In this document: in pieces, positions 1-17,185 of the stretch
How positions within the stretch are numbered: the stretch's first letter is position 1
How the letters are laid out: every line of letters starts with the position of its first letter
Assembly: GCA_021817065.1 (NCBI GenBank)
Contig: JAKAWH010000054.1
Span: 1-20,470 of the forward strand
Direction of reading: 5' to 3'
Length of the DNA: 20,470 nucleotides
Source of the DNA: Actinomycetes bacterium
GTDB lineage: Bacteria > Actinomycetota > Acidimicrobiia > Acidimicrobiales > JAKAVM01
Notes under the pieces: generated by a model
Databases searched by the model: none
Told to the model about the DNA's origin: nothing
Seen by the model: the letters and a program-made list of their open reading frames with translations, nothing else
Program-made: the position numbers and the translations under genes

Positions 1-26
1 GACCCCCCAAGGGGCGGATTTCCCAT

Positions 27-101
27 GGTGGCCGTAGCTCAGTTGGTTAGAGCGCCAGGTTGTGGCCCTGGAGGTCGGGGGTTCGAGTCCCCTCGGTCAC
101 C
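27..101 (+). tRNA. tRNA-His (anticodon GUG)
   Basis: Cloverleaf read by hand. Acceptor GTGGCCG/CGGTCAC has 7 bp. D-stem is GCTC/GAGC. Anticodon stem is CCAGG/CCTGG with loop TTGTGGC, giving anticodon GTG. T-arm is GGGGG-TTCGAGT-CCCCT. An extra 5' G (pos 27) opposite discriminator C101 is the His-specific G-1. CCA is not encoded. Confidence 0.9.
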
Positions 102-127
102 CGAGTGAATGCGCAGGTAGGAGGGCA

Positions 128-352
128 TTAATCTCCCTGGGGCGGTTGTCTCCTCGTCTATGTTTTGGCTCTGACCCAACGGGGAACCCGACAACCGGGA
201 GGAGGGTCATCGGTGGCAGGAAGCATCCGCCTGGTCAGGGGCGACGATGTGGGAACTCCGTGTCTGCCTGGGTCGTGATTCTCGGGGAAAAGTGCGCCAT
301 CTGCATCGCAGGTTCCGTAGTACCAAGCGCCAAGCCGAGAGGGACCGGGCCC
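128..352 (+). repeat. Copy A of a ~225-bp direct repeat, 27 bp downstream of tRNA-His
   Basis: Aligns colinearly with 4151..4376. The core from about 183 to 346 (~164 nt) differs at only 3 positions (ggagggtcatcgg vs ggtgggtcatctg; ccgtagtacc vs ccgtggtacc). The 5' 55 nt are ~75% identical with a 1-nt indel. No convincing ORF. Local stems such as CAUCG...CGAUG and CUGC-AUC-GCAG are present. Confidence 0.85.
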
Positions 353-1005
353 GCCTGGTCACCGAACAGGATTCTGCGCCCCGACGATCGCGCCGGGATG
401 AACCCCAGCTCCGCATGGAGCTCCATTTGTACAGCTCTCCGATGGTGACGAACGTCAGCCACGCCCCACCATCGATCTCGGGTCCTACCGACGTCGAGGT
501 CTACGGACCGAAAAAGCAAGGCACCGCCTACAACCACGCCGGCCAGCGCGCCTACAGGCCTCACCCGGCTGTGTGGGCCGAGGCAGGCTTGGCGAGCTCT
601 CGACGTGCTGATCGCCGGTTCAGGACCGTAGCCGCTTGAGGCAGTAACCGGCTACCAAACTGAGGCGATCGCACTGCAGCCGGCATCACGAATCACAACA
701 CTAAACCTCTTGGTCGAGCGCGCCTCGGTTTCGGGTAACCGTCACCCTCTACTGGCCGGAGCCTCCGCACCAGCTACTGGTACCGCTGGTTCGGGAGGTC
801 GGCGGCTTATTCGCGGATCCAGGTCTGACGACATCGTGCGGGACATGGGTATCGACGGAATCTGTATTCCCAGGTGACGCGAATGACCGTCGAGCTCCAC
901 AGGAAGGTCGCCGAGTTCCCCAATCGGGCCCTCATCAATGCCGCACCAGTCATTGCAGGCCAAGAAAAGTGGCCCTTGCCGCACACCGTGGAAGACAATC
1001 GAAAT

Positions 1006-1034
1006 GCTCCCCTCCGCGTCAAACGGAGGGGAGC
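1006..1034 (-). terminator. Candidate intrinsic terminator on the minus strand
   Basis: GC-rich 11-bp perfect stem gctcccctccg / cggaggggagc with a 7-nt loop. On the minus strand it is followed by the U-rich tract AUUUCGAUUGUCUUC. It lies in an ORF-free region. Confidence 0.3.
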
Positions 1035-1356
1035 CAACCCGAGAGCGTTGCGAGTCACTCCGAATCACAGTCGGCACTGCACGGCAGCACCTCCTGCTGC
1101 GACGGTTCGGGGAAACCCCTGCCCTCACCTGTATTTGTCGCCGAAACAGACCGGGATCTTTCACCCCGTGGGGAAAAATCGGCACACGAGCTGAAGAATC
1201 AGTTGGTGGGTGATCACACTGATGGATGACTTGACGCCGCCGCTGACTTCTCATATGCTTCGCGTCGGGTAGACGAAGTCGAACTGCGACGGCGGCAGAG
1301 TCAACCAGTTGAATAACGGTTGACCGGGGAGCATTGCGTTCCAGAAGGGCAGGACG

Positions 1357-2103
1357 ATGACGCACCTATCATGGCTGCGTGCAGCACGAGCAGCTGGCTG
1401 CGTGGCCGCAGCTGGGGCCCTCCTCTTGTTATCCACTGGTGCTGCTTATGCTGGGCAGTATGGCACCTACAATGGTGCTGCTGCAGCGCGCTACGCGGAC
1501 ACCTACTGGAGCAATTACAACATCGACTACGCCAGCTTCGGGGGGACAGACTGCACCAATTTTGTTTCCCAGGCACTCAACTCAGGCCCAGGTAATGCGG
1601 AGGACTATGGCAAGCCATGGGAACCGACGTATCTCCAGGAGCCGTTATACAACTACCCCTCGGTGGTTGATAACCCGGGTGATCTCTCATACTGGTATGG
1701 AGAACTGACTGGTTACGGTGCCAACTACTATTCCAACACATGGACTGTCGCTCCAGACCTCTTCTATTTCCTGACCTTTTACGACGGTTCTAGCTCCTAT
1801 TTCACCTATTCCTTCGACTATTATCAGAACGGAACTGCTCCTTCGATACCACCTTCAAATGCCCTGGGCGACCCCTTCTTCTACAATTGGGATGCAAGGG
1901 ATAACGGTGAGGGAATCTACGGTATCGATCACGCCACCATCACCGCCTATGGAGGCTGGGGTACCGACGGCACCTGGGGAACCGAGGTCGATGCCCACGA
2001 CTCCAATAGACAGCACGTGTTCTGGACGTTGAGATTCGTGCAAAATCCATCGAATCCCTATTGGCCCACGGAGGAGGTATTCACCGATCATGTCGTTAGC
2101 TGA
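1357..2103 (+). CDS. Secreted putative amidase, Amidase_6 / NlpC-P60-related domain
   Basis: N-terminal signal peptide MTHLSWLRAARAAGCVAAAGALLLLSTGAAYA|GQ. Motif YADTYWSNYN...FGGTDCTNFVSQAL matches the catalytic-Cys core (GGDCTNFVSQ) of the putative amidase (Amidase_6) family. Tyr/Gly/Asn-rich mature region with a C-terminal His (IDHATITAY). RBS-like gaagggcagga lies upstream of the ATG. Confidence 0.75.
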   Translation: MTHLSWLRAARAAGCVAAAGALLLLSTGAAYAGQYGTYNGAAAARYADTYWSNYNIDYASFGGTDCTNFVSQALNSGPGNAEDYGKPWEPTYLQEPLYNYPSVVDNPGDLSYWYGELTGYGANYYSNTWTVAPDLFYFLTFYDGSSSYFTYSFDYYQNGTAPSIPPSNALGDPFFYNWDARDNGEGIYGIDHATITAYGGWGTDGTWGTEVDAHDSNRQHVFWTLRFVQNPSNPYWPTEEVFTDHVVS

Positions 2104-2887
2104 TATGAGCCACCAGTCCACTAACCGCCGACGATTCGGCCAACGAGCGCGAGGAATGCTTGTGGTGAGCGCCGTGGCAGCGGGCGCCGGCTTCGGTGCG
2201 TCACTGGGGGTCGCGCACGGACAAGGAAATGACAGTGCCAAAGAAGCCGCTGTGAAGCAAGTATTCCTGGAAGCCCAAGTTCTTGGGGAGAATGAAGGGG
2301 CACCAGCTCCAGCAGGTCTCGCCAAATCCGCCGATTGGGCAGTCCATGGAGATTCCCTCGTCCACACCAAGAACGGCGACCGCCTCGAGAACCCCGGCCA
2401 CTCTTGGGTCGACGACTCCGGTCATGTATTGGGACTCTCAGCCGCAGAGGTCGCCCAGATCACCTCCCAGCAGGATGCAGAGGCAGATGCCATCCTCGCT
2501 CCTGGCAAGATCCGCACCAACTACCTTAACGCAATCAATGGCTGGGCAAAGAAAGGTGGTGAATTGGTGTCGTCGATGAGTCCTGCTGACGCGGTGTCGG
2601 CCATCAATAGCGTGGGTCCTGTTGGCGGTGCCGAAGTGGTCAAATGGGAGAGCATCGATATTGCTGGCACCACCGCTAGCGTCCACGCGGTGATGAAGAT
2701 TTGGAACGAGAACGACCAAGCCACACTCGACGGTCAGGGGAACCTACATGTAGCCACTGAGGTGGCATCCGGATACGGCGACTCCTATGCTACCTTGCAA
2801 GAGACTCCCTCCGGCACCTGGCAAATCGTTTCCATGGATACAGAACCTTCCGATGCCAACGGCAATACTGACGTCGCTTCCGGGTAG
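2090..2887 (+). CDS. Secreted hypothetical protein with a possible Tat signal (NRRRFGQ then a hydrophobic stretch)
   Basis: ATG overlaps the stop of the upstream gene by 14 nt, which suggests an operon. N-terminus has an RR motif followed by VVSAVAAGAGFGASLGVAHG. GC3-rich codon usage consistent with neighbouring genes. No recognisable catalytic motif. Confidence 0.6.
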   Translation: MSLADMSHQSTNRRRFGQRARGMLVVSAVAAGAGFGASLGVAHGQGNDSAKEAAVKQVFLEAQVLGENEGAPAPAGLAKSADWAVHGDSLVHTKNGDRLENPGHSWVDDSGHVLGLSAAEVAQITSQQDAEADAILAPGKIRTNYLNAINGWAKKGGELVSSMSPADAVSAINSVGPVGGAEVVKWESIDIAGTTASVHAVMKIWNENDQATLDGQGNLHVATEVASGYGDSYATLQETPSGTWQIVSMDTEPSDANGNTDVASG

Positions 2888-3575
2888 CTCGACAAGGACT
2901 GCTCCCTCCGGGCGCCGACGGGGACGACTATCCAAGCTTTGCAGAACCAGCTTCGTCTGGGCCGTGGTAGCCCTGGTGACCGCCATCGTTATTGTCGTAG
3001 TTATACCCAAGCAAAGTGCGACGACAGCTGCCGGGGAGAAGTCGGAGGTCCGCGCCGCTTTAGTACGTGCGGACACCCTGCGACTCATGATCGGTTCTCC
3101 CTGGCTCGCATCTCCCTCTCATTGGTCCATCGCAACCGGCACGTCCAGGGCTTCGTGGAACACCGGTGTTGGCACCAAGCCGATCCATCCATCATCAAAC
3201 CTGCTCGGAGCGATGGGCCGTGAACAGGGCTCTCTCATCAGCCAGTGGATGGGATCGTCAGTGGCAAGCAGTACTCGGTCACAGTTGGCTTCGGCCATCG
3301 GGGTCGACACCTCACGGGAGATCTTCCCTTGGGTTGCTCAGGTCTACGGTGTGTCCACGCAAACCATTGATATATCGGGCAACCAGGCAGGAATCCGGGC
3401 GAAGGTCTTTGCATGGCAGGGAGGTACGGTTCCCACCAGAAGCGGTCCCAAGCTTCTCAAATTGCGAATGGAGCTCGACGAGTACGCAACGTTCAAAATG
3501 GTTGGTGGGCACTGGCGAGAAGTGAGCGATCGAAGCTACGAGCACCCAGTCAGCGGGAATCCGGGGAACCTGTAA
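2787..3575 (+). CDS. Single-pass membrane-anchored hypothetical protein (alternative start ATG 2853)
   Basis: Long ORF in operon with the two upstream genes. Hydrophobic helix FVWAVVALVTAIVIVVVI follows a basic stretch RRRGRLSKL. No in-frame ATG lies downstream of the preceding stop, so the start must overlap the upstream gene. Confidence 0.5.
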   Translation: MLPCKRLPPAPGKSFPWIQNLPMPTAILTSLPGSSTRTAPSGRRRGRLSKLCRTSFVWAVVALVTAIVIVVVIPKQSATTAAGEKSEVRAALVRADTLRLMIGSPWLASPSHWSIATGTSRASWNTGVGTKPIHPSSNLLGAMGREQGSLISQWMGSSVASSTRSQLASAIGVDTSREIFPWVAQVYGVSTQTIDISGNQAGIRAKVFAWQGGTVPTRSGPKLLKLRMELDEYATFKMVGGHWREVSDRSYEHPVSGNPGNL

Positions 3576-3604
3576 ACCACGGGGGTACATCGAAGCCACT
3601 ATAG

Positions 3605-3634
3605 CCATCTCCGAGTATATCGACTCGGAGATGG
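3605..3634. promoter_or_regulatory. Perfect 12-bp inverted repeat CCATCTCCGAGT-(ATATCG)-ACTCGGAGATGG overlapping the start codon of the zinc-ribbon gene
   Basis: The arms are exact reverse complements. ATG 3631 lies inside the right arm. No U-tract follows, so an operator or translational hairpin is more likely than a terminator. Confidence 0.45.
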
Positions 3635-4011
3635 CGGGTGTGGGATGCTCGGTACCTATGCCCAAGACACCCCCAGCACGACTTGCCTCCTACGAGCACC
3701 GCTACCGAGATCTCGCCCGGCAGCTCTCTGAGATCGGCTGGATCGCTTCGGGCAGCGTGGCGTACCGCCCCGAGCGCTGTGGCAAGTCGAACTGCGCCTG
3801 CCGCTCGGACCCCGCACGGCTACACGGGCCCTACTGGCACTTCACCGCCAAGGTCGACGGCAAGACGGTGAACAAGCGCCTTTCCGAGCGTGAAGCCCGC
3901 CTATATCAACAGTGGATCGCCAACTACCGCACGGTGCGCGCTCTCCTCGGCGAGATGCGCGAGATCGCTGCCAAGGCCCAGGCCCTGATCCTCGCCGAGG
4001 ATGACGTCTGA
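3631..4011 (+). CDS. Small CxxC/CxC zinc-ribbon hypothetical protein (conserved actinobacterial DUF-type)
   Basis: 126 aa. Motif RCGKSNCACRSD...HGPYWHFTAKVDGKTVNKRLSEREARLYQQWIANYR resembles a widespread small actinobacterial protein family of unknown function. The C-terminus is predicted helical. Confidence 0.6.
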   Translation: MAGVGCSVPMPKTPPARLASYEHRYRDLARQLSEIGWIASGSVAYRPERCGKSNCACRSDPARLHGPYWHFTAKVDGKTVNKRLSEREARLYQQWIANYRTVRALLGEMREIAAKAQALILAEDDV

Positions 4012-4150
4012 CTCCGCCCGCAACAGGCAGTGTGCCGCTTCACCTGAAACCCGCCGCCCCACCTCACGCCGCCGGGCCTGAAGTGCTTGAAACACAGGGC
4101 GAATCGGTCATCCGAGCACGTGTGAGTGCCATTTCACGCTTGATTCAGGA

Positions 4151-4376
4151 TTAAGTTCCCTGGGGCGGTTGTCTGCTCGTCTTTTTCTGGCTCTGACCGA
4201 AATAGGTGACCCAACAACCGGGAGGTGGGTCATCTGTGGCAGGAAGCATCCGCCTGGTCAGGGGCGACGATGTGGGAACTCCGTGTCTGCCTGGGTCGTG
4301 ATTCTCGGGGAAAAGTGCGCCATCTGCATCGCAGGTTCCGTGGTACCAAGCGCCAAGCCGAGAGGGACCTGGCCGC
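4151..4376 (+). repeat. Copy B of the ~225-bp direct repeat
   Basis: See copy A. Same orientation, 4023 bp downstream. Identity decays at both edges. Confidence 0.85.
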
Positions 4377-4420
4377 AAGTGGAGCGGGGGAGTGCCCAAC
4401 CCGATTGCCGACGCCGAGCT

Positions 4421-4497
4421 GGCCGATCGAGGGCCGATCGAGGGCCGATCGAGGGCCGATCGAGGGCCGATCGAGGGCCGATCGAGGGCCGATCGCG
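4421..4497. repeat. Tandem 11-bp repeat (GGGCCGATCGA)x~7
   Basis: ggccgatcga then gggccgatcga x5 then gggccgatcgc. Each unit carries the palindrome CGATCG. The 11-bp period is close to the DNA helical repeat. Intergenic, ~150 bp upstream of the XRE gene. Confidence 0.9.
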
Positions 4498-4515
4498 ATA
4501 ATGATAGTATTATCG
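4496..4515. promoter_or_regulatory. AT-rich inverted repeat CGATAAT-GATAGT-ATTATCG, a candidate operator or -10 region upstream of the XRE regulator
   Basis: 7-bp arms are exact reverse complements. A strongly AT-rich island in GC-rich DNA that contains TAGTAT. About 130 bp upstream of ATG 4643. Confidence 0.4.
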
Positions 4516-4642
4516 AATGGCGCAGAAAGCCTGGTCGGTTGAGTTTCACCCGGCCTGCGGGAAGTGGGCTGGCAGACGAGAGATTCGAAGGGCACTTGGC
4601 AAACATGGAACCCGACAAGCAACTACACAGAAGAAGGCCACG

Positions 4643-10140: not shown

Positions 10141-10174
10141 CTGCGTCCAGGCGGGCCGTTTCACGGCCGGGTGG

Positions 10175-10312
10175 CCTCAGGGGCGCCGGGTCCGGCAGGT
10201 GCGAAGGACGTTCCCTCAGGGGCGCCGGGTCCGGCAGGTGCGAAGGAGGTTCCCTCAGGGGCGCCGGGTCCGGCAGGTGCGAAGGACGTTCCCTCAGGGG
10301 CGCCGGGTCCGG
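10175..10312. repeat. 39-bp tandem repeat x3.5 (cctcaggggcgccgggtccggcaggtgcgaaggacgttc) between the convergent E1 and thioesterase genes
   Basis: Copies at 10175, 10214, 10253 and a partial at 10292. One substitution (gacg/gagg) in copy 2. The last partial copy overlaps the final codons of the minus-strand thioesterase gene. Confidence 0.9.
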
Positions 10313-10986
10313 AGGCGGTGGGCGGGTATCACCGCGAACTCACCTTCGGCTTCGCAACACGTGTGTCCCTCCTGGATCAACTTCCCTCGGCTGATCACCC
10401 GCCGCTCGTCTTTGGCAACCACCTCGGCCTCGAAGCGGGACTCGATCCCGATCAGGGTGGGGCGGAGATAGCGGACGGTCAGGCATACGGTCGGACCGGA
10501 AGTACCGGCGATCTGATTGGCCGCGGTGAGAACGATGTCGAAGGTGGAGGCGATCACCCCTCCATGAACCCACCCGGGCCCGCCCTCGTAGGCGGTGGTG
10601 AAGTGGGCGGTGCCGATCGCGAGCGGTGGGTCGAATGCGATGGTCACCGGCAGTGCGATCGGATTGAACTGGCCGACCACCGGGTCGTAGGGCATCGCTC
10701 CGTGCATGATGGTCCCGGAAAAAGGCTGACCGTCCGTCTCTCCAACCCCGGCCTTCGCTCCGGTCCCTTCTGTCTCTCCAACCCCGGCCGTCTCTCCGGT
10801 CCCTTCTGTCTCTCCAACCCCGGCCGGGTCGACGAAACGGGGGATGGGCGTATCGGGCACGAAGGAGCCCAGGAGGTCGGATATAGCGTCGATGCGGGAG
10901 ATCGCATCGGTGAGTGCTTCGGGCGGAGCAGCGCTGGTGACCGCACGGTCGATGAGGCTCCGGAGCGATTCGGCCAATCCGAACAT
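10294..10986 (-). CDS. PaaI/4HBT-family hotdog-fold thioesterase with an internal Gly/Glu/Thr-rich tandem repeat
   Basis: Motif HGGVIASTFDIVL (the conserved HGG of PaaI-type thioesterases). Start set at ATG 10986 (MFGLAESL) with ggaagg 5 nt upstream. The track ORF extends to 11085. Contains in-frame repeats AGVGETEGTGET. Confidence 0.7.
   Translation of the reverse strand: MFGLAESLRSLIDRAVTSAAPPEALTDAISRIDAISDLLGSFVPDTPIPRFVDPAGVGETEGTGETAGVGETEGTGAKAGVGETDGQPFSGTIMHGAMPYDPVVGQFNPIALPVTIAFDPPLAIGTAHFTTAYEGGPGWVHGGVIASTFDIVLTAANQIAGTSGPTVCLTVRYLRPTLIGIESRFEAEVVAKDERRVISRGKLIQEGHTCCEAEGEFAVIPAHRLRTRRP
10738..10825. repeat. In-frame 36-bp coding tandem repeat (2.4 copies) inside the thioesterase gene
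   Basis: ctctccaaccccggccNtcNctccggtcccttctgt repeated at 10738 and 10774, with a partial at 10810. Encodes GVGETEGTGETA-type 12-aa units on the minus strand. Confidence 0.85.
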
Positions 10987-11153
10987 CTCGCCTTCCCGGC
11001 CGGCCAGGATCGGATGAAAAGTGGGGCACGGAAGGAGCGGACCGCCCTCAGATGATCGTGCAGAAGTCGGCAAGGGCCCCAACATAGTTCCGGCTCGGCC
11101 GCAGAGGTACGACGACTAGGCTGAGCCCCAGGGCCCCAGAGGAGGTCGTGCCC

Positions 11154-12894: not shown

Positions 12895-14409
12895 TCAATC
12901 CTCGAGGGTCACCCGCCACTCGTAGAGGCATCCGGAGGGACGTCGCTCCACCACCGACAATTCTCCTCCGTGTTCTCGGGCTCGGCTGGCGAGCCGGTTC
13001 AGCCATCGTGCCGATGCGGGCCCCTCGGGAATGCCGACCCCGTCATCGGAGACCGAGACGACCAGAGATAGGGCATCCACGGAGATGTCGACGCCCACCC
13101 GGGTGGCCATCGAATGGCAGGCGATGTTGTGGAGGATGTCGCCCAACGCTTCCAGGAGCGCATGTCGCAACTCGGCGGAGATGTGGGAGTCGATGGGGCC
13201 GGACCAATGAAGGGTCGGCTGGAACCCCAGCTCGATGGCAGCGTGGTCCACCATGTCCCGTACCCGAGTGGTGACCGGTACCGTGCTCAGGGGGGCATGG
13301 GTGAGGTCCTCGATCTCCCGCTCCAATTCCACGATCACGTTGCGCAGATCTTCCGAAGTTGTCTCGACCCGCTCGCGCACAATTCCTGGAACCAGGGTGG
13401 CGAGCCGATCCAGACGGGCACCGATCTTGTGGAGGGTGGCGATTACCACGTCGTCGAGGTCACTGGCGATCCGATGTTGATCGCTGACCAGCCGGGAGAC
13501 CGCGAGCTGGTTCCGGGTTCGATCGGCCACCATCGCCACTGCCACGGTGGAGGAGAAGATCTCCAGCAAGGTCTGCTCCAGTTCGGTGAAATCCGGCTGT
13601 CCCGGGGCACGGACGATGGAGAGTGCTCCGATCGCCTCGCCGTCGGCCGCGATCGGCACGACGATAGCGGGACCCAGACCGAGTGCTGCCCCATCGGGGT
13701 GGACGTTGTCGGAAAGGGCGAGATCGTGTATTCGTACTATTTCCCCGGTCTCGTAGGCATAGCCGGCGGCGCTGGAACCAGGCTCCATGTCCAGGCCGGT
13801 GAGATATGCGTAGTCCTCGTCGTCCGCACCGGCGATGACCATATGGCCGAGTCGATGGCTGGGAATCGACACGGTTCCCAGCTCGGCTCCGAGGAGGAGA
13901 CGGGCCTCCCTGGCTATCTGGGCGTAGATCTCGCGGGGAGTGAGGGCCGCCAGAAGCGCCCGGTTGATCTGGCTGACCGCTAGCAGGAGCAGCTCCACCC
14001 GGCTCGCTTCGCTCACGTCGCGCACGAAAGCCCCCACGAAGCGCTGACCGCCAATTTCTATCGGAGCAAGACTTACGTCAATAGGGAAGGTTGTCCGATC
14101 GCTCCGTACTCCGGAGATCCGCAGGCCGCTTCCCATCGGTCGACGATAGGGATCGGCTGCAAAGCGGCTCCGATGGTCGGCATGGGCCGACCGTAGGTCG
14201 GTTGGGATAAGTTCCTCGACGGACATACCGGCCAAGCCACCTGGACCGTAGCCAAAAAGTACCTCGGCGGCTGGGTTGCACCGGGTGATCGTCCCGTCTT
14301 GGTCGACCACCACGATCCCGTCCGGCATAGCTTCGAAAAGAGCAGCCAGGCCGGGAAGCGCCTCGATCGCCGCTCCGCCGGACGTGAGGTCGCCGGGAAA
14401 GCCGAACAT
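12895..14409 (-). CDS. PAS-GAF sensor histidine kinase (HisKA_3 + HATPase_c; partner would be a NarL-type response regulator)
   Basis: PAS domain (PDGIVVVDQDGTI...FGY). GAF domain. H-box RIASDLDDVVIATLHKI (HisKA_3). C-terminal ATPase with DDGVGIP and GGEL motifs. Start set at ATG 14409 (MFGFPGDL). The track ORF starts at TTG 14439. Confidence 0.8.
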   Translation of the reverse strand: MFGFPGDLTSGGAAIEALPGLAALFEAMPDGIVVVDQDGTITRCNPAAEVLFGYGPGGLAGMSVEELIPTDLRSAHADHRSRFAADPYRRPMGSGLRISGVRSDRTTFPIDVSLAPIEIGGQRFVGAFVRDVSEASRVELLLLAVSQINRALLAALTPREIYAQIAREARLLLGAELGTVSIPSHRLGHMVIAGADDEDYAYLTGLDMEPGSSAAGYAYETGEIVRIHDLALSDNVHPDGAALGLGPAIVVPIAADGEAIGALSIVRAPGQPDFTELEQTLLEIFSSTVAVAMVADRTRNQLAVSRLVSDQHRIASDLDDVVIATLHKIGARLDRLATLVPGIVRERVETTSEDLRNVIVELEREIEDLTHAPLSTVPVTTRVRDMVDHAAIELGFQPTLHWSGPIDSHISAELRHALLEALGDILHNIACHSMATRVGVDISVDALSLVVSVSDDGVGIPEGPASARWLNRLASRAREHGGELSVVERRPSGCLYEWRVTLED

Positions 14410-14506
14410 CAGCGAGTCTCTTCCCGGATGCCCGCGCAACAGAAGCCGAACATCAGCGAGTCTATTCCCGGATGCCCGCGCAACAGAAGCCGAACATCAG
14501 TGGTGG
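14401..14506. repeat. 44-bp tandem duplication (2.4 copies) at the junction of the two kinase genes
   Basis: gccgaacatcagcgagtctNttcccggatgcccgcgcaacagaa at 14401 and 14445, with a partial at 14489. It duplicates the RBS-ATG-MFGF region of the downstream kinase. On the minus strand the two mini-ORFs (12 and 15 codons incl. stop) start MFGF. Their starts overlap upstream stops as TGATG. Confidence 0.85.
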
Positions 14507-15826: not shown

Positions 15827-15901
15827 GCGCCTCTAGCTCAACGGCAGAGCAACGGACTCTTAATCCGCAGGTTCTGGGTTCGAATCCCAGGGGGCGCACC
15901 A
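15827..15901 (+). tRNA. tRNA-Lys (anticodon CUU)
   Basis: Acceptor GCGCCTC/GGGGCGC (7 bp, one G-U). D-arm GCTC-AACGGCA-GAGC. Anticodon arm CGGA/TCCG with loop CTCTTAA, giving anticodon CTT. T-arm CTGGG-TTCGAAT-CCCAG. Discriminator A. CCA is encoded. Confidence 0.85.
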
Positions 15902-16030
15902 AGAAGGAGCAGGGCAAAGGCCATAAATAGCGGCCTGACTCGATCCTCACTTCTCACGTTGCTATACCATGCTACACTAATCTTCCATGACCCCGGTGGC
16001 GGGGTGTAGCAAGCAGTGAAGGAGGACCTG

Positions 16031-17185
16031 ATGCGGGGGACGATGCGTCGTCGGGGGGATGCCTGGGAATTGCGCGCCTATGCCGGGCGCGATCCGGTCA
16101 CGGGCCGGAAGAAGACCGCGACCAAGACCTTTCGCGGGGGTAGCCGGGAGGCGGAGGAGGCGTTGGCAGCCTTCGTCACGGAGGTGGCCGGGGGAGGGCA
16201 CGCCGTTCAGGATGCGACGATGGGCGACCTGCTTCACCGGTGGTTCGACATGACCAAGGGAGACCTGTCCCCGTCCACGGCGAGGGAGTACGAACGGATC
16301 ATCAAGGTTCACATCCTCCCGACCTTCGGCAAGGTCCCGGTGGCCCGGCTCCGCACCGCCCAGCTCGATGCTTTCTACGCCAAGCTGCGCGACGGTGGGG
16401 GAAAGGACGGAAAGCCCCTCTCGCCCGCCACCGTCCGCCAGGTACACGCGGTATTGCGCAGAGCGTTGCGCCAGGCCGTGCGGTGGGAGTGGATCACGAC
16501 GAATCCGGCCATCCATGCCTCGCCGCCGCGGGTCACCAAGCCGCACCTGCAACCACCCTCTCCGGACGACGTGGTGGAGCTGATCGCGGTGGCCGACGAG
16601 TATGACGCCGACTTCGGGTGCTACCTGCGCGTGGCTGCGACCACCGGAGCACGCCGGGGTGAGCTGTGCGCGCTGCGATGGAGGGACGTGGACTTCGACG
16701 CGCCGGCGGTGACCATCAGTCACTCCATCGCCGAGGGGAGGGGACTGCGCCCGACGGAGAAGGACACGAAGACCCACTCGGCCCGCCGCATCGCTCTCGA
16801 TACCCTCACCGTGTCGGCATTGAAGAAGCACCGCAAGAAAATGGAGAGCCGCGCCAAGACATGCACAACGACGGTATGTGAGGACGGCTTCATCTTCTCG
16901 CGCGACCCCGACGGAGCGCGTCCCTGGCCCCCGAACGACGTCACCAAGTGGTTCATCGCTGCGCGCGCCAAGGCGGGTAAACAGAACGTTCGGCTGCACG
17001 ACTTCCGTCACTTCGCCGCGACCCGTCTGCTGGCAGCCGGTGTACCCGTGCGAACCGTGAGCGGGCGGCTCGGTCACGCCAATGCCGCGACGACATTGGG
17101 GGTCTACGCCCACTTCGTCGAGGAATCCGACCGGGACGCCGCCGACATCCTGGGCGAGCTGGTGGGCAGGGGGAAGAAGGGCTGA
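16031..17185 (+). CDS. int: Phage-type tyrosine recombinase/integrase
   Basis: Start ATG 16031 (MRGTMRRRGDAWELR) with RBS gaaggagg upstream. C-terminal catalytic residues within GARRGELCALRWRDV (Arg), LHDFRHFAATRLL (His-x-x-Arg) and LGHANAATTLGVYAH (the Tyr nucleophile). Confidence 0.9.
   Translation: MRGTMRRRGDAWELRAYAGRDPVTGRKKTATKTFRGGSREAEEALAAFVTEVAGGGHAVQDATMGDLLHRWFDMTKGDLSPSTAREYERIIKVHILPTFGKVPVARLRTAQLDAFYAKLRDGGGKDGKPLSPATVRQVHAVLRRALRQAVRWEWITTNPAIHASPPRVTKPHLQPPSPDDVVELIAVADEYDADFGCYLRVAATTGARRGELCALRWRDVDFDAPAVTISHSIAEGRGLRPTEKDTKTHSARRIALDTLTVSALKKHRKKMESRAKTCTTTVCEDGFIFSRDPDGARPWPPNDVTKWFIAARAKAGKQNVRLHDFRHFAATRLLAAGVPVRTVSGRLGHANAATTLGVYAHFVEESDRDAADILGELVGRGKKG

Follow-up and report, generated by a model that had tools for sequence, protein, structure and literature searches.

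The window analyzed here, i.e., the whole 20,470-nt stretch of DNA, carries about 1 kb (353–1356) between a direct repeat (copy A) and an amidase operon in which no intact ORF supported by a protein family is found. The question that it raises is whether this segment is a gene of another kind, such as the large structured RNA proposed in a preliminary description, or what is left of former genes. The evidence gathered below indicates that it is very probably non-functional debris in a small, decayed genomic island at a tRNA-His gene and, toward its right end, the control region of the operon that the island carries as cargo (Table 1). All of its parts belong to known kinds: a pseudogene of a tRNA-linked tyrosine integrase, the relic of an IS1380-family element, and the control region of an operon.

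Table 1. Features in and around the segment 353–1356, with window coordinates
Feature	Position	Strand	Basis or remark
tRNA-His (GTG), the island's integration target	28–102	+	ARAGORN; Rfam tRNA, 67 bits
att-like core TCGGTCACCCGAG at the tRNA 3' end	93–105	+	second copy TCGGTCATCCGAG at 4104–4116
Direct repeat copy A: integrase upstream region and first codons	127–351	+	copy B at 4150–4374
Tyrosine-integrase pseudogene, relic A	213–390	+	HMMER, tblastn; start at GTG 213
Junction of integrase relic and IS relic	391–439		no significant match; contains palindrome ATGGAGCTCCAT (415–426)
IS1380-family transposase, internal fragment (~aa 150–200 of a ~475-aa protein)	440–593	+	tblastn, protein and DNA alignments
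Last 14 transposase codons and stop, AWRALDVLIAGSGP*, frame 2	587–631	+	joined to the internal fragment by a ~790-nt deletion
IS 3' non-coding end	632–828	+	five-way DNA alignment with full-length relatives; IRR at 807–828
Non-coding spacer, no homologue or coding signature detected	829–1230		homology, family, and GC3 scans
Perfect 11-bp GC-rich stem-loop, GCTCCCCTCCG N7 CGGAGGGGAGC, terminator-like	1006–1034	-	stem scan, terminator scan, folding
Promoter-like TTGACG-17-TATGCT, candidate amidase-operon promoter	1231–1259	+	position
Inverted repeat GTCAACC-N11-GGTTGAC in the predicted 5' leader	1300–1324	+	sequence; 7 bp, 32 nt before ATG 1357
Low-GC cargo operon: Amidase_6 protein (1357–2103) and two further ORFs (2090–2887, 2787–3575)	1357–3575	+	Pfam PF12671, E=2e-16
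Integrase pseudogene, relic B	4236–4380	+	tblastn of integrase relatives; alignment with copy A

Setting of the segment at the tRNA-His gene

Contig DAHVPN010000026.1 of the metagenome-assembled genome (MAG) GCA_027318265.1 matches the window at 100% identity, and the same layout is present in three independent assemblies, including a second MAG (L002) and a Logan contig; since the sequence recurs in these, the arrangement is not an artifact of a single assembly. The island adjoins a tRNA gene, the 3' end of which recurs as a direct repeat at the far boundary. The two 13-mers differ by one mismatch, for which shuffled sequences give an expectation of 0.05 pairs per window at up to one mismatch, and the integrase starts 120–132 nt downstream of each att-like copy, in A and B alike. 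Copies A and B themselves form a 225-nt direct repeat, 4023 nt apart, with 91%–97% identity in the repeat scan and alignment (92.5% over 226 nt in blastn), and the low-GC cargo sits between them. These two copies, together with the 13-nt copy of the tRNA 3' end, point to tandem integration at tRNA-His, and the simplest reading is that two related elements would have entered this tRNA gene in tandem and both decayed.

The resemblance to actinobacterial tRNA-targeting tyrosine integrases lies in a gene that begins ~110 nt past the tRNA and reads away from it, with the shared N-terminal motif MAGSIR...WELRV.GRD..GK.R....F.G.KR.AE..LA.LV, and the resemblance to tandem accretion at one tRNA lies in the tRNA 3'-end repeat and in the second integrase 5' end following the distal att copy. 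Unlike in such tRNA-targeting elements, both integrase stubs are 50–60 codons long, frameshifted, and devoid of the catalytic domain; unlike in integrative elements and prophages, no excisionase or other element function is recognizable. No outer attR could be located for the older element.

The cargo operon has a GC content of 0.52–0.59 against 0.63–0.69 for the host, and searches of JGI metagenomes, IMG/VR, and PLSDB plasmids brought up no close relative of its amidase protein. Both of its non-amidase ORFs have apparent signal sequences. The operon and an adjoining DUF6788 gene (GC ~0.65), which separates it from copy B, together span 1357–4011, and between the last ORF of the operon and this gene there is a perfect 13-bp stem-loop, CCATCTCCGAGT...ACTCGGAGATGG (3604–3635), which is probably the terminator of the amidase operon. 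The closest relatives of the lat gene come from uncultured Actinomycetes with at most 78% identity; none of 80 lat-gene relatives from GTDB genomes (≤78% identity) has any similarity to window 100–4600, and among the 41 relatives scanned for tRNAs, none has tRNA-His upstream of lat.

To the right of copy B follow, in order, an 11-bp tandem repeat, an XRE-type HTH gene, and a class-III aminotransferase gene. The repeat (GGCCGATCGAG, ~7–8 units, 4410–4497) stands directly after integrase stub B and is 44 nt (four units) shorter in the second MAG, so that its copy number is either polymorphic or unstable in assembly. Other tandem repeats occur farther along the window. In-frame repeats of 39 nt (three copies, 10170–10312) and of 18/36 nt (Pro/Ser-rich, 10730–10837) are located at and just past the end of a large E1-dehydrogenase-type ORF, within a 294-aa ORF (10171–11055), and a 44-nt tandem duplication, 98% identical (14399–14486), falls at the 5' end of, or just upstream of, the minus-strand ORF 12895–14439.

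The left part of the segment holds integrase and IS1380-family relics

That copy A forms the 5' end of an integrase pseudogene is demonstrated by homology searches. From GTG 213, relic A reads VAGSIRLVRGDDV up to a 2-nt frameshift at ~247, where GTGTGG has become GTGG by the loss of 2 nt, and continues as WELRVCLGRDSRGKVRHLHRRFRSTKRQAERDRARLVTEQD. In an HMMER search of 1.84 billion proteins, the ORF starting at 247 gave >70 matches to its residues 1–47, which align at target positions ~13–60 and, hence, in every case with the N-terminus. The longer of these matches carry both Phage_int_SAM_3 and Phage_integrase and start MAGSIRLVRGKDVWELRVF.GRDS.GKVRH; P0017 (MAGSIRLVRGKDVWELRV...) carries the same two, and the upstream frame VAGSIRLVRGDDV of relic A corresponds to its MAGSIRLVRGKDV. 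When integrase relatives were searched against the window with tblastn, they matched 213–251 in frame 3 and 238–381/396 in frame 1.

Relic A retains ~60 of ~390 codons, whereas relic B is cut after approximately codon 50 and has the identical 2-nt frameshift, from which it follows that the gene was broken before the copies diverged or that both stem from one broken source. Integrase similarity reaches ~381–396 in copy A and ends at ~4374–4380 in copy B; the repeat stops at 351 because copy B is shorter, and the integrase continues past 351 in copy A. Since this similarity extends to ~390, the first ~40 nt of 353–1356 are integrase pseudogene. Only frameshifted N-terminal stubs remain at the two sites (~60 codons in A, ~50 in B), with no catalytic domain in either, and they therefore represent a pseudogene and not a functional integrase.

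It was the exhaustive HMMER search alone that settled the integrase identity. The frameshift-corrected peptide had no match in Pfam and no candidates in a word-index protein search; in tblastn, it matched nothing in phages, gave noise only in plasmids, and gave Arg-rich noise only in 80 actinobacterial loci. The relics are too short for the profiles of Pfam, NCBIfam, and PHROGs.

Elsewhere in the window (15827–17185), a tRNA-Lys (CTT) gene is followed by an intact gene (16016–17185) for a 389-aa tyrosine integrase from the family of the tRNA-His relics, and the segment of relic A is 42% identical to this integrase. The integrase gene has the same orientation directly after its tRNA, which is the native architecture, and the pair probably delimits one side of a second integrative element, which may still be mobile and which continues rightward.

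Beyond the junction follows a relic of an IS1380-family insertion sequence. Its internal transposase fragment reads RPTIDLG in frame 3 and, after a 1-nt frameshift, PTDVEVYGPKKQGTAYNHAGQRAYRPHPAVWAEAGL in frame 1, with ~45 codons retained at a GC3 of 0.83. A tblastn search against plasmids recovered annotated IS1380-family transposases on Pseudonocardia and Mycobacterium plasmids (E=3e-6), and the fragment has 63% identity to aa 144–178 of WP_060710862.1 (477 aa). A metagenome scan added nine closer relatives (65%–86% identity), to which the DNA at 462–593 is 72%–83% identical with a single 1-nt gap (best 83% to L086, E=2e-34); this gap is the frameshift that separates RPTIDLG from PTDVEVYG. 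Downstream of the fragment, there is no match to the next ~260 transposase codons, and the sequence resumes with the last codons of the gene. Their peptide resembles the extreme C-termini AWAALQALPSSAGP*, AWTTLRALPTASGP*, and AWTTLGAMASFAGP* of L092, L091, and L087; these matches are individually weak (E 0.3–2.8), yet all are collinear with conserved DNA blocks downstream. The blocks comprise GCCGGCA.CACGAATCAC (679–697), CT.GTCGAGCGCG (707–725), and the right terminal inverted repeat (IRR) TTATTCGCGGATCCAGGTCTGA (807–828), which shares 17 of 22 positions with the IRR consensus, more than any other site in the window; two of 100 shuffles reach this score. The distance from the stop codon to the end of the IRR is 197 nt, compared to 186–195 nt in the relatives.

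Two of these relatives, on uncultured metagenome contigs, are full-length, apparently intact IS1380-family elements with 22–25-bp inverted repeats (L087, 2076–3791; L092, 1729–3453), and they could be used as references when this IS is named. Their paired left (IRL) and right ends delimit 1716 bp and ~1725 bp, respectively, a size typical of the IS1380 family, of which IS1247 has 1672 bp, 16-bp inverted repeats, and a 5-bp duplication (PMC3281130). The relic shares with the family, including IS1247, ISEcp1, L087, and L092, the block (R)PTIDLD-PTDVEVYG-KKQG-AYN-GQR--RPH in its transposase fragment, together with the C-terminal peptide, the 3' blocks, and an inverted repeat at the expected distance from the stop. 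It differs from these elements in having kept only ~390 of ~1720 nt, in the loss of the left end, of the first ~150 codons, and of ~260 codons in the interior, and in its shifted reading frame. Homology to the transposase is confined to fragments (35–45 codons at 63%–86% identity, plus the 14 C-terminal codons), and the catalytic region is absent. In the alignments, the relic is thus truncated at its 5' end, deleted in its interior, and complete at its right end; no IRL is present because the left IS end has been deleted, and the relic cannot transpose. A simple insertion of the IS into the integrase gene, with the rest of that gene beyond the right IS end, was considered and rejected because there is no integrase similarity past ~400.

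The preliminary description held that the segment was ORF-free with no protein-like frame. The lack of an intact, family-supported ORF was upheld, but the second part is wrong for 353–636, where translated searches recovered integrase and transposase fragments. It had also named beforehand a disrupted protein gene in translated searches as the outcome that would tell against its RNA reading, and precisely such a gene was found across 353 to ~636; its fallback reading of plain decayed mobile-element DNA is borne out for 353–828.

The spacer, its hairpin, and the probable operon control region

Six-frame pieces of 247–1365 had no match in Pfam, NCBIfam, or PHROGs, and blastn in distant mode of 353–1356 against plasmids and phages gave nothing. 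The same was true of tblastn against plasmids and phages with a minus-strand ORF and with an 866-aa six-frame concatenate of 632–1365. A word-index protein search with the concatenate yielded no homologue among the 8000 candidates at which it was capped, which is a weak negative, as the ORF's own entry was missed too. The comparison of 829–1356 with the rest of the window and 8.6 kb of upstream sequence by tblastx and blastn returned noise only. Across 745–1226, four frames are open for >100 codons, and 829–1050 has a weak codon-like periodicity in frame +1; these open frames and the periodicity are hints of a former coding sequence in the spacer. The long open frames in 353–1356 have a GC3 of 0.55–0.64, compared to 0.74–0.84 in the real genes here. 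We infer that nothing in 829–1230 is functional, with the proviso that the hairpin at 1006–1034 might still be.

The segment was also described as rich in hairpins, which the counts contradict. Perfect stems of at least 4 bp number 67 in 353–1356, against 51±9 in dinucleotide shuffles (13 of 200 shuffles reach 67) and 56±15 in other 1-kb windows of the same sequence, and stems of at least 5, 6, and 7 bp are also at chance level. The 20.5-kb window has eight perfect 12-nt palindromes against 7.7 expected. Sliding 150-nt folds are ordinary except around the 1006–1034 hairpin, where z is approximately -3 on both strands; the whole of 829–1356 folds with z of approximately -1.8 to -2.0 on both strands, a value equalled in two of 13 control windows of mostly coding DNA. 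Among the individual structures listed earlier, the palindrome ATGGAGCTCCAT, the 11-bp stem-loop, and GGGGAAACCCC (1109–1119) are located as reported, and CCCCGTGGGG, which had been placed at 1168–1177, is actually at 1164–1173.

The stem-loop at 1006–1034 is one of only two stems of at least 9 bp in 20 kb, the other being that at 3604–3635. A simple terminator scan accepts it on the minus strand but not on the plus strand, with the weak U-rich tail ATTTCGATTG (5 T in 10); a U-rich tail on the minus strand had been noted before. Its perfect GC-rich 11-bp stem and 7-nt loop resemble those of intrinsic terminators, including the "I-shaped," tail-poor ones, and the comparable 13-bp stem follows the last gene of the amidase operon. 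Unlike intrinsic terminators, it has no gene ending directly ahead of it on the plus or the minus strand, and its U-tail is weak and confined to the minus strand. No transcription unit ending at this hairpin is identifiable, and no minus-strand gene is apparent. The hairpin is probably an orphan or insulating terminator.

The proposal that copy A and 353–1356 together form a large structured non-coding RNA similar to the ornate large RNA (OLE), or a remnant of a group II intron or ribozyme, is favored by nothing but the missing intact ORF and one strong hairpin. It is already contradicted, and its probability is negligible: copy A and 353–828 are relics of a protein gene and an IS, Rfam covariance models gave no intron, OLE, or ribozyme match at gathering thresholds or even at E≤10 (the sole match, of 16 bits to a trypanosomatid snoRNA, is noise), and folding and hairpin density are at background, with neither stability nor structure density raised above it on one strand. 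A minus-strand small RNA ending at the 1006–1034 hairpin was likewise suggested. Such an RNA, starting at ~1100–1300, is in keeping with the minus-strand-only terminator call and with the local fold signal; nevertheless, it is very unlikely, as no promoter-like site is present on the minus strand of 1–4600, there is no Rfam match, and the structure signal is equal on the two strands, as a DNA palindrome would give. A small protein gene in the spacer, such as the 111-aa minus-strand ORF 742–1077, is extremely unlikely. One gene caller predicted this ORF on the Logan contig, and the spacer does contain long open frames; against this, the ORF is a singleton cluster among ~15 billion proteins, matches no family, has a GC3 of 0.55 against 0.74–0.84 in host genes, and overlaps both the IS right end and the 1006–1034 hairpin.

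The promoter-like site at 1231–1259 is the sole sigma-70-like match on both strands of 1–4600, a count that does not exceed chance (one found against 1.5 expected), and from its position, it is the likely promoter of the amidase operon. The inverted repeat in the predicted leader, whose local folding is unexceptional, could be an operator or a leader hairpin, as far as its sequence tells, and a purine-rich ribosome-binding region stands upstream of ATG 1357. A wider role has to be considered for the whole of 829–1356, either as a long leader or cis-regulatory region of the operon or as spacer DNA within a transposition unit similar to those of ISEcp1, where the IS1380-family element would have mobilized the low-GC operon through its right end. 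Mobilization of adjacent DNA by single IS1380-family copies has been reported (PMC3281130). Moreover, the transposase reads toward the operon, the IRR is 528 nt upstream of the ATG, the cargo is low in GC and without close relatives in any collection searched, and the promoter-like site and inverted repeat are just 5' of the ATG. However, the left IS end, beside which a target duplication of 4–5 bp would be expected, is lost; the cargo is not bounded by another IRR-like site, the next best matches scoring 14–15 of 22, i.e., chance level; and similar flanking DNA accompanies none of the nine IS relatives. This reading is unlikely. It is more doubtful still that 829–1230 with its hairpin is a functional RNA element, be it a novel minus-strand small RNA or a long regulatory leader that arrived with the low-GC amidase operon, possibly as such an IS1380-driven, ISEcp1-like unit.

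Proposed history and significance of the locus

For the debris reading, which is the one preferred here, we infer the following order of events. Two related integrative elements would have entered the 3' end of tRNA-His successively, so that the att core and the integrase 5' region are now each present twice (A and B). An IS1380-family insertion sequence may then have inserted into the proximal integrase gene or directly behind it. A deletion would subsequently have removed integrase codons ~60–390, the left end of the IS, and the first ~150 transposase codons, and a second deletion would have taken ~790 nt of the transposase interior. The residue consists, in order, of the integrase relic (353 to ~390), the IS relic (~440–828), and the spacer (829–1356), in which the 1006–1034 hairpin may insulate the operon from upstream read-through or may once have terminated a gene that is now lost.

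The importance of this finding beyond annotation is little. As a worked case, it illustrates that DNA of high GC content, free of ORFs and dotted with palindromes, can pass for structured RNA by eye. For the locus itself, an apparent gene desert becomes a labelled island boundary composed of an integrase pseudogene, an IS1380 relic, a probable orphan terminator, and a likely operon promoter, and the repeat copies A and B probably mark tandem integration at tRNA-His and not an RNA gene.
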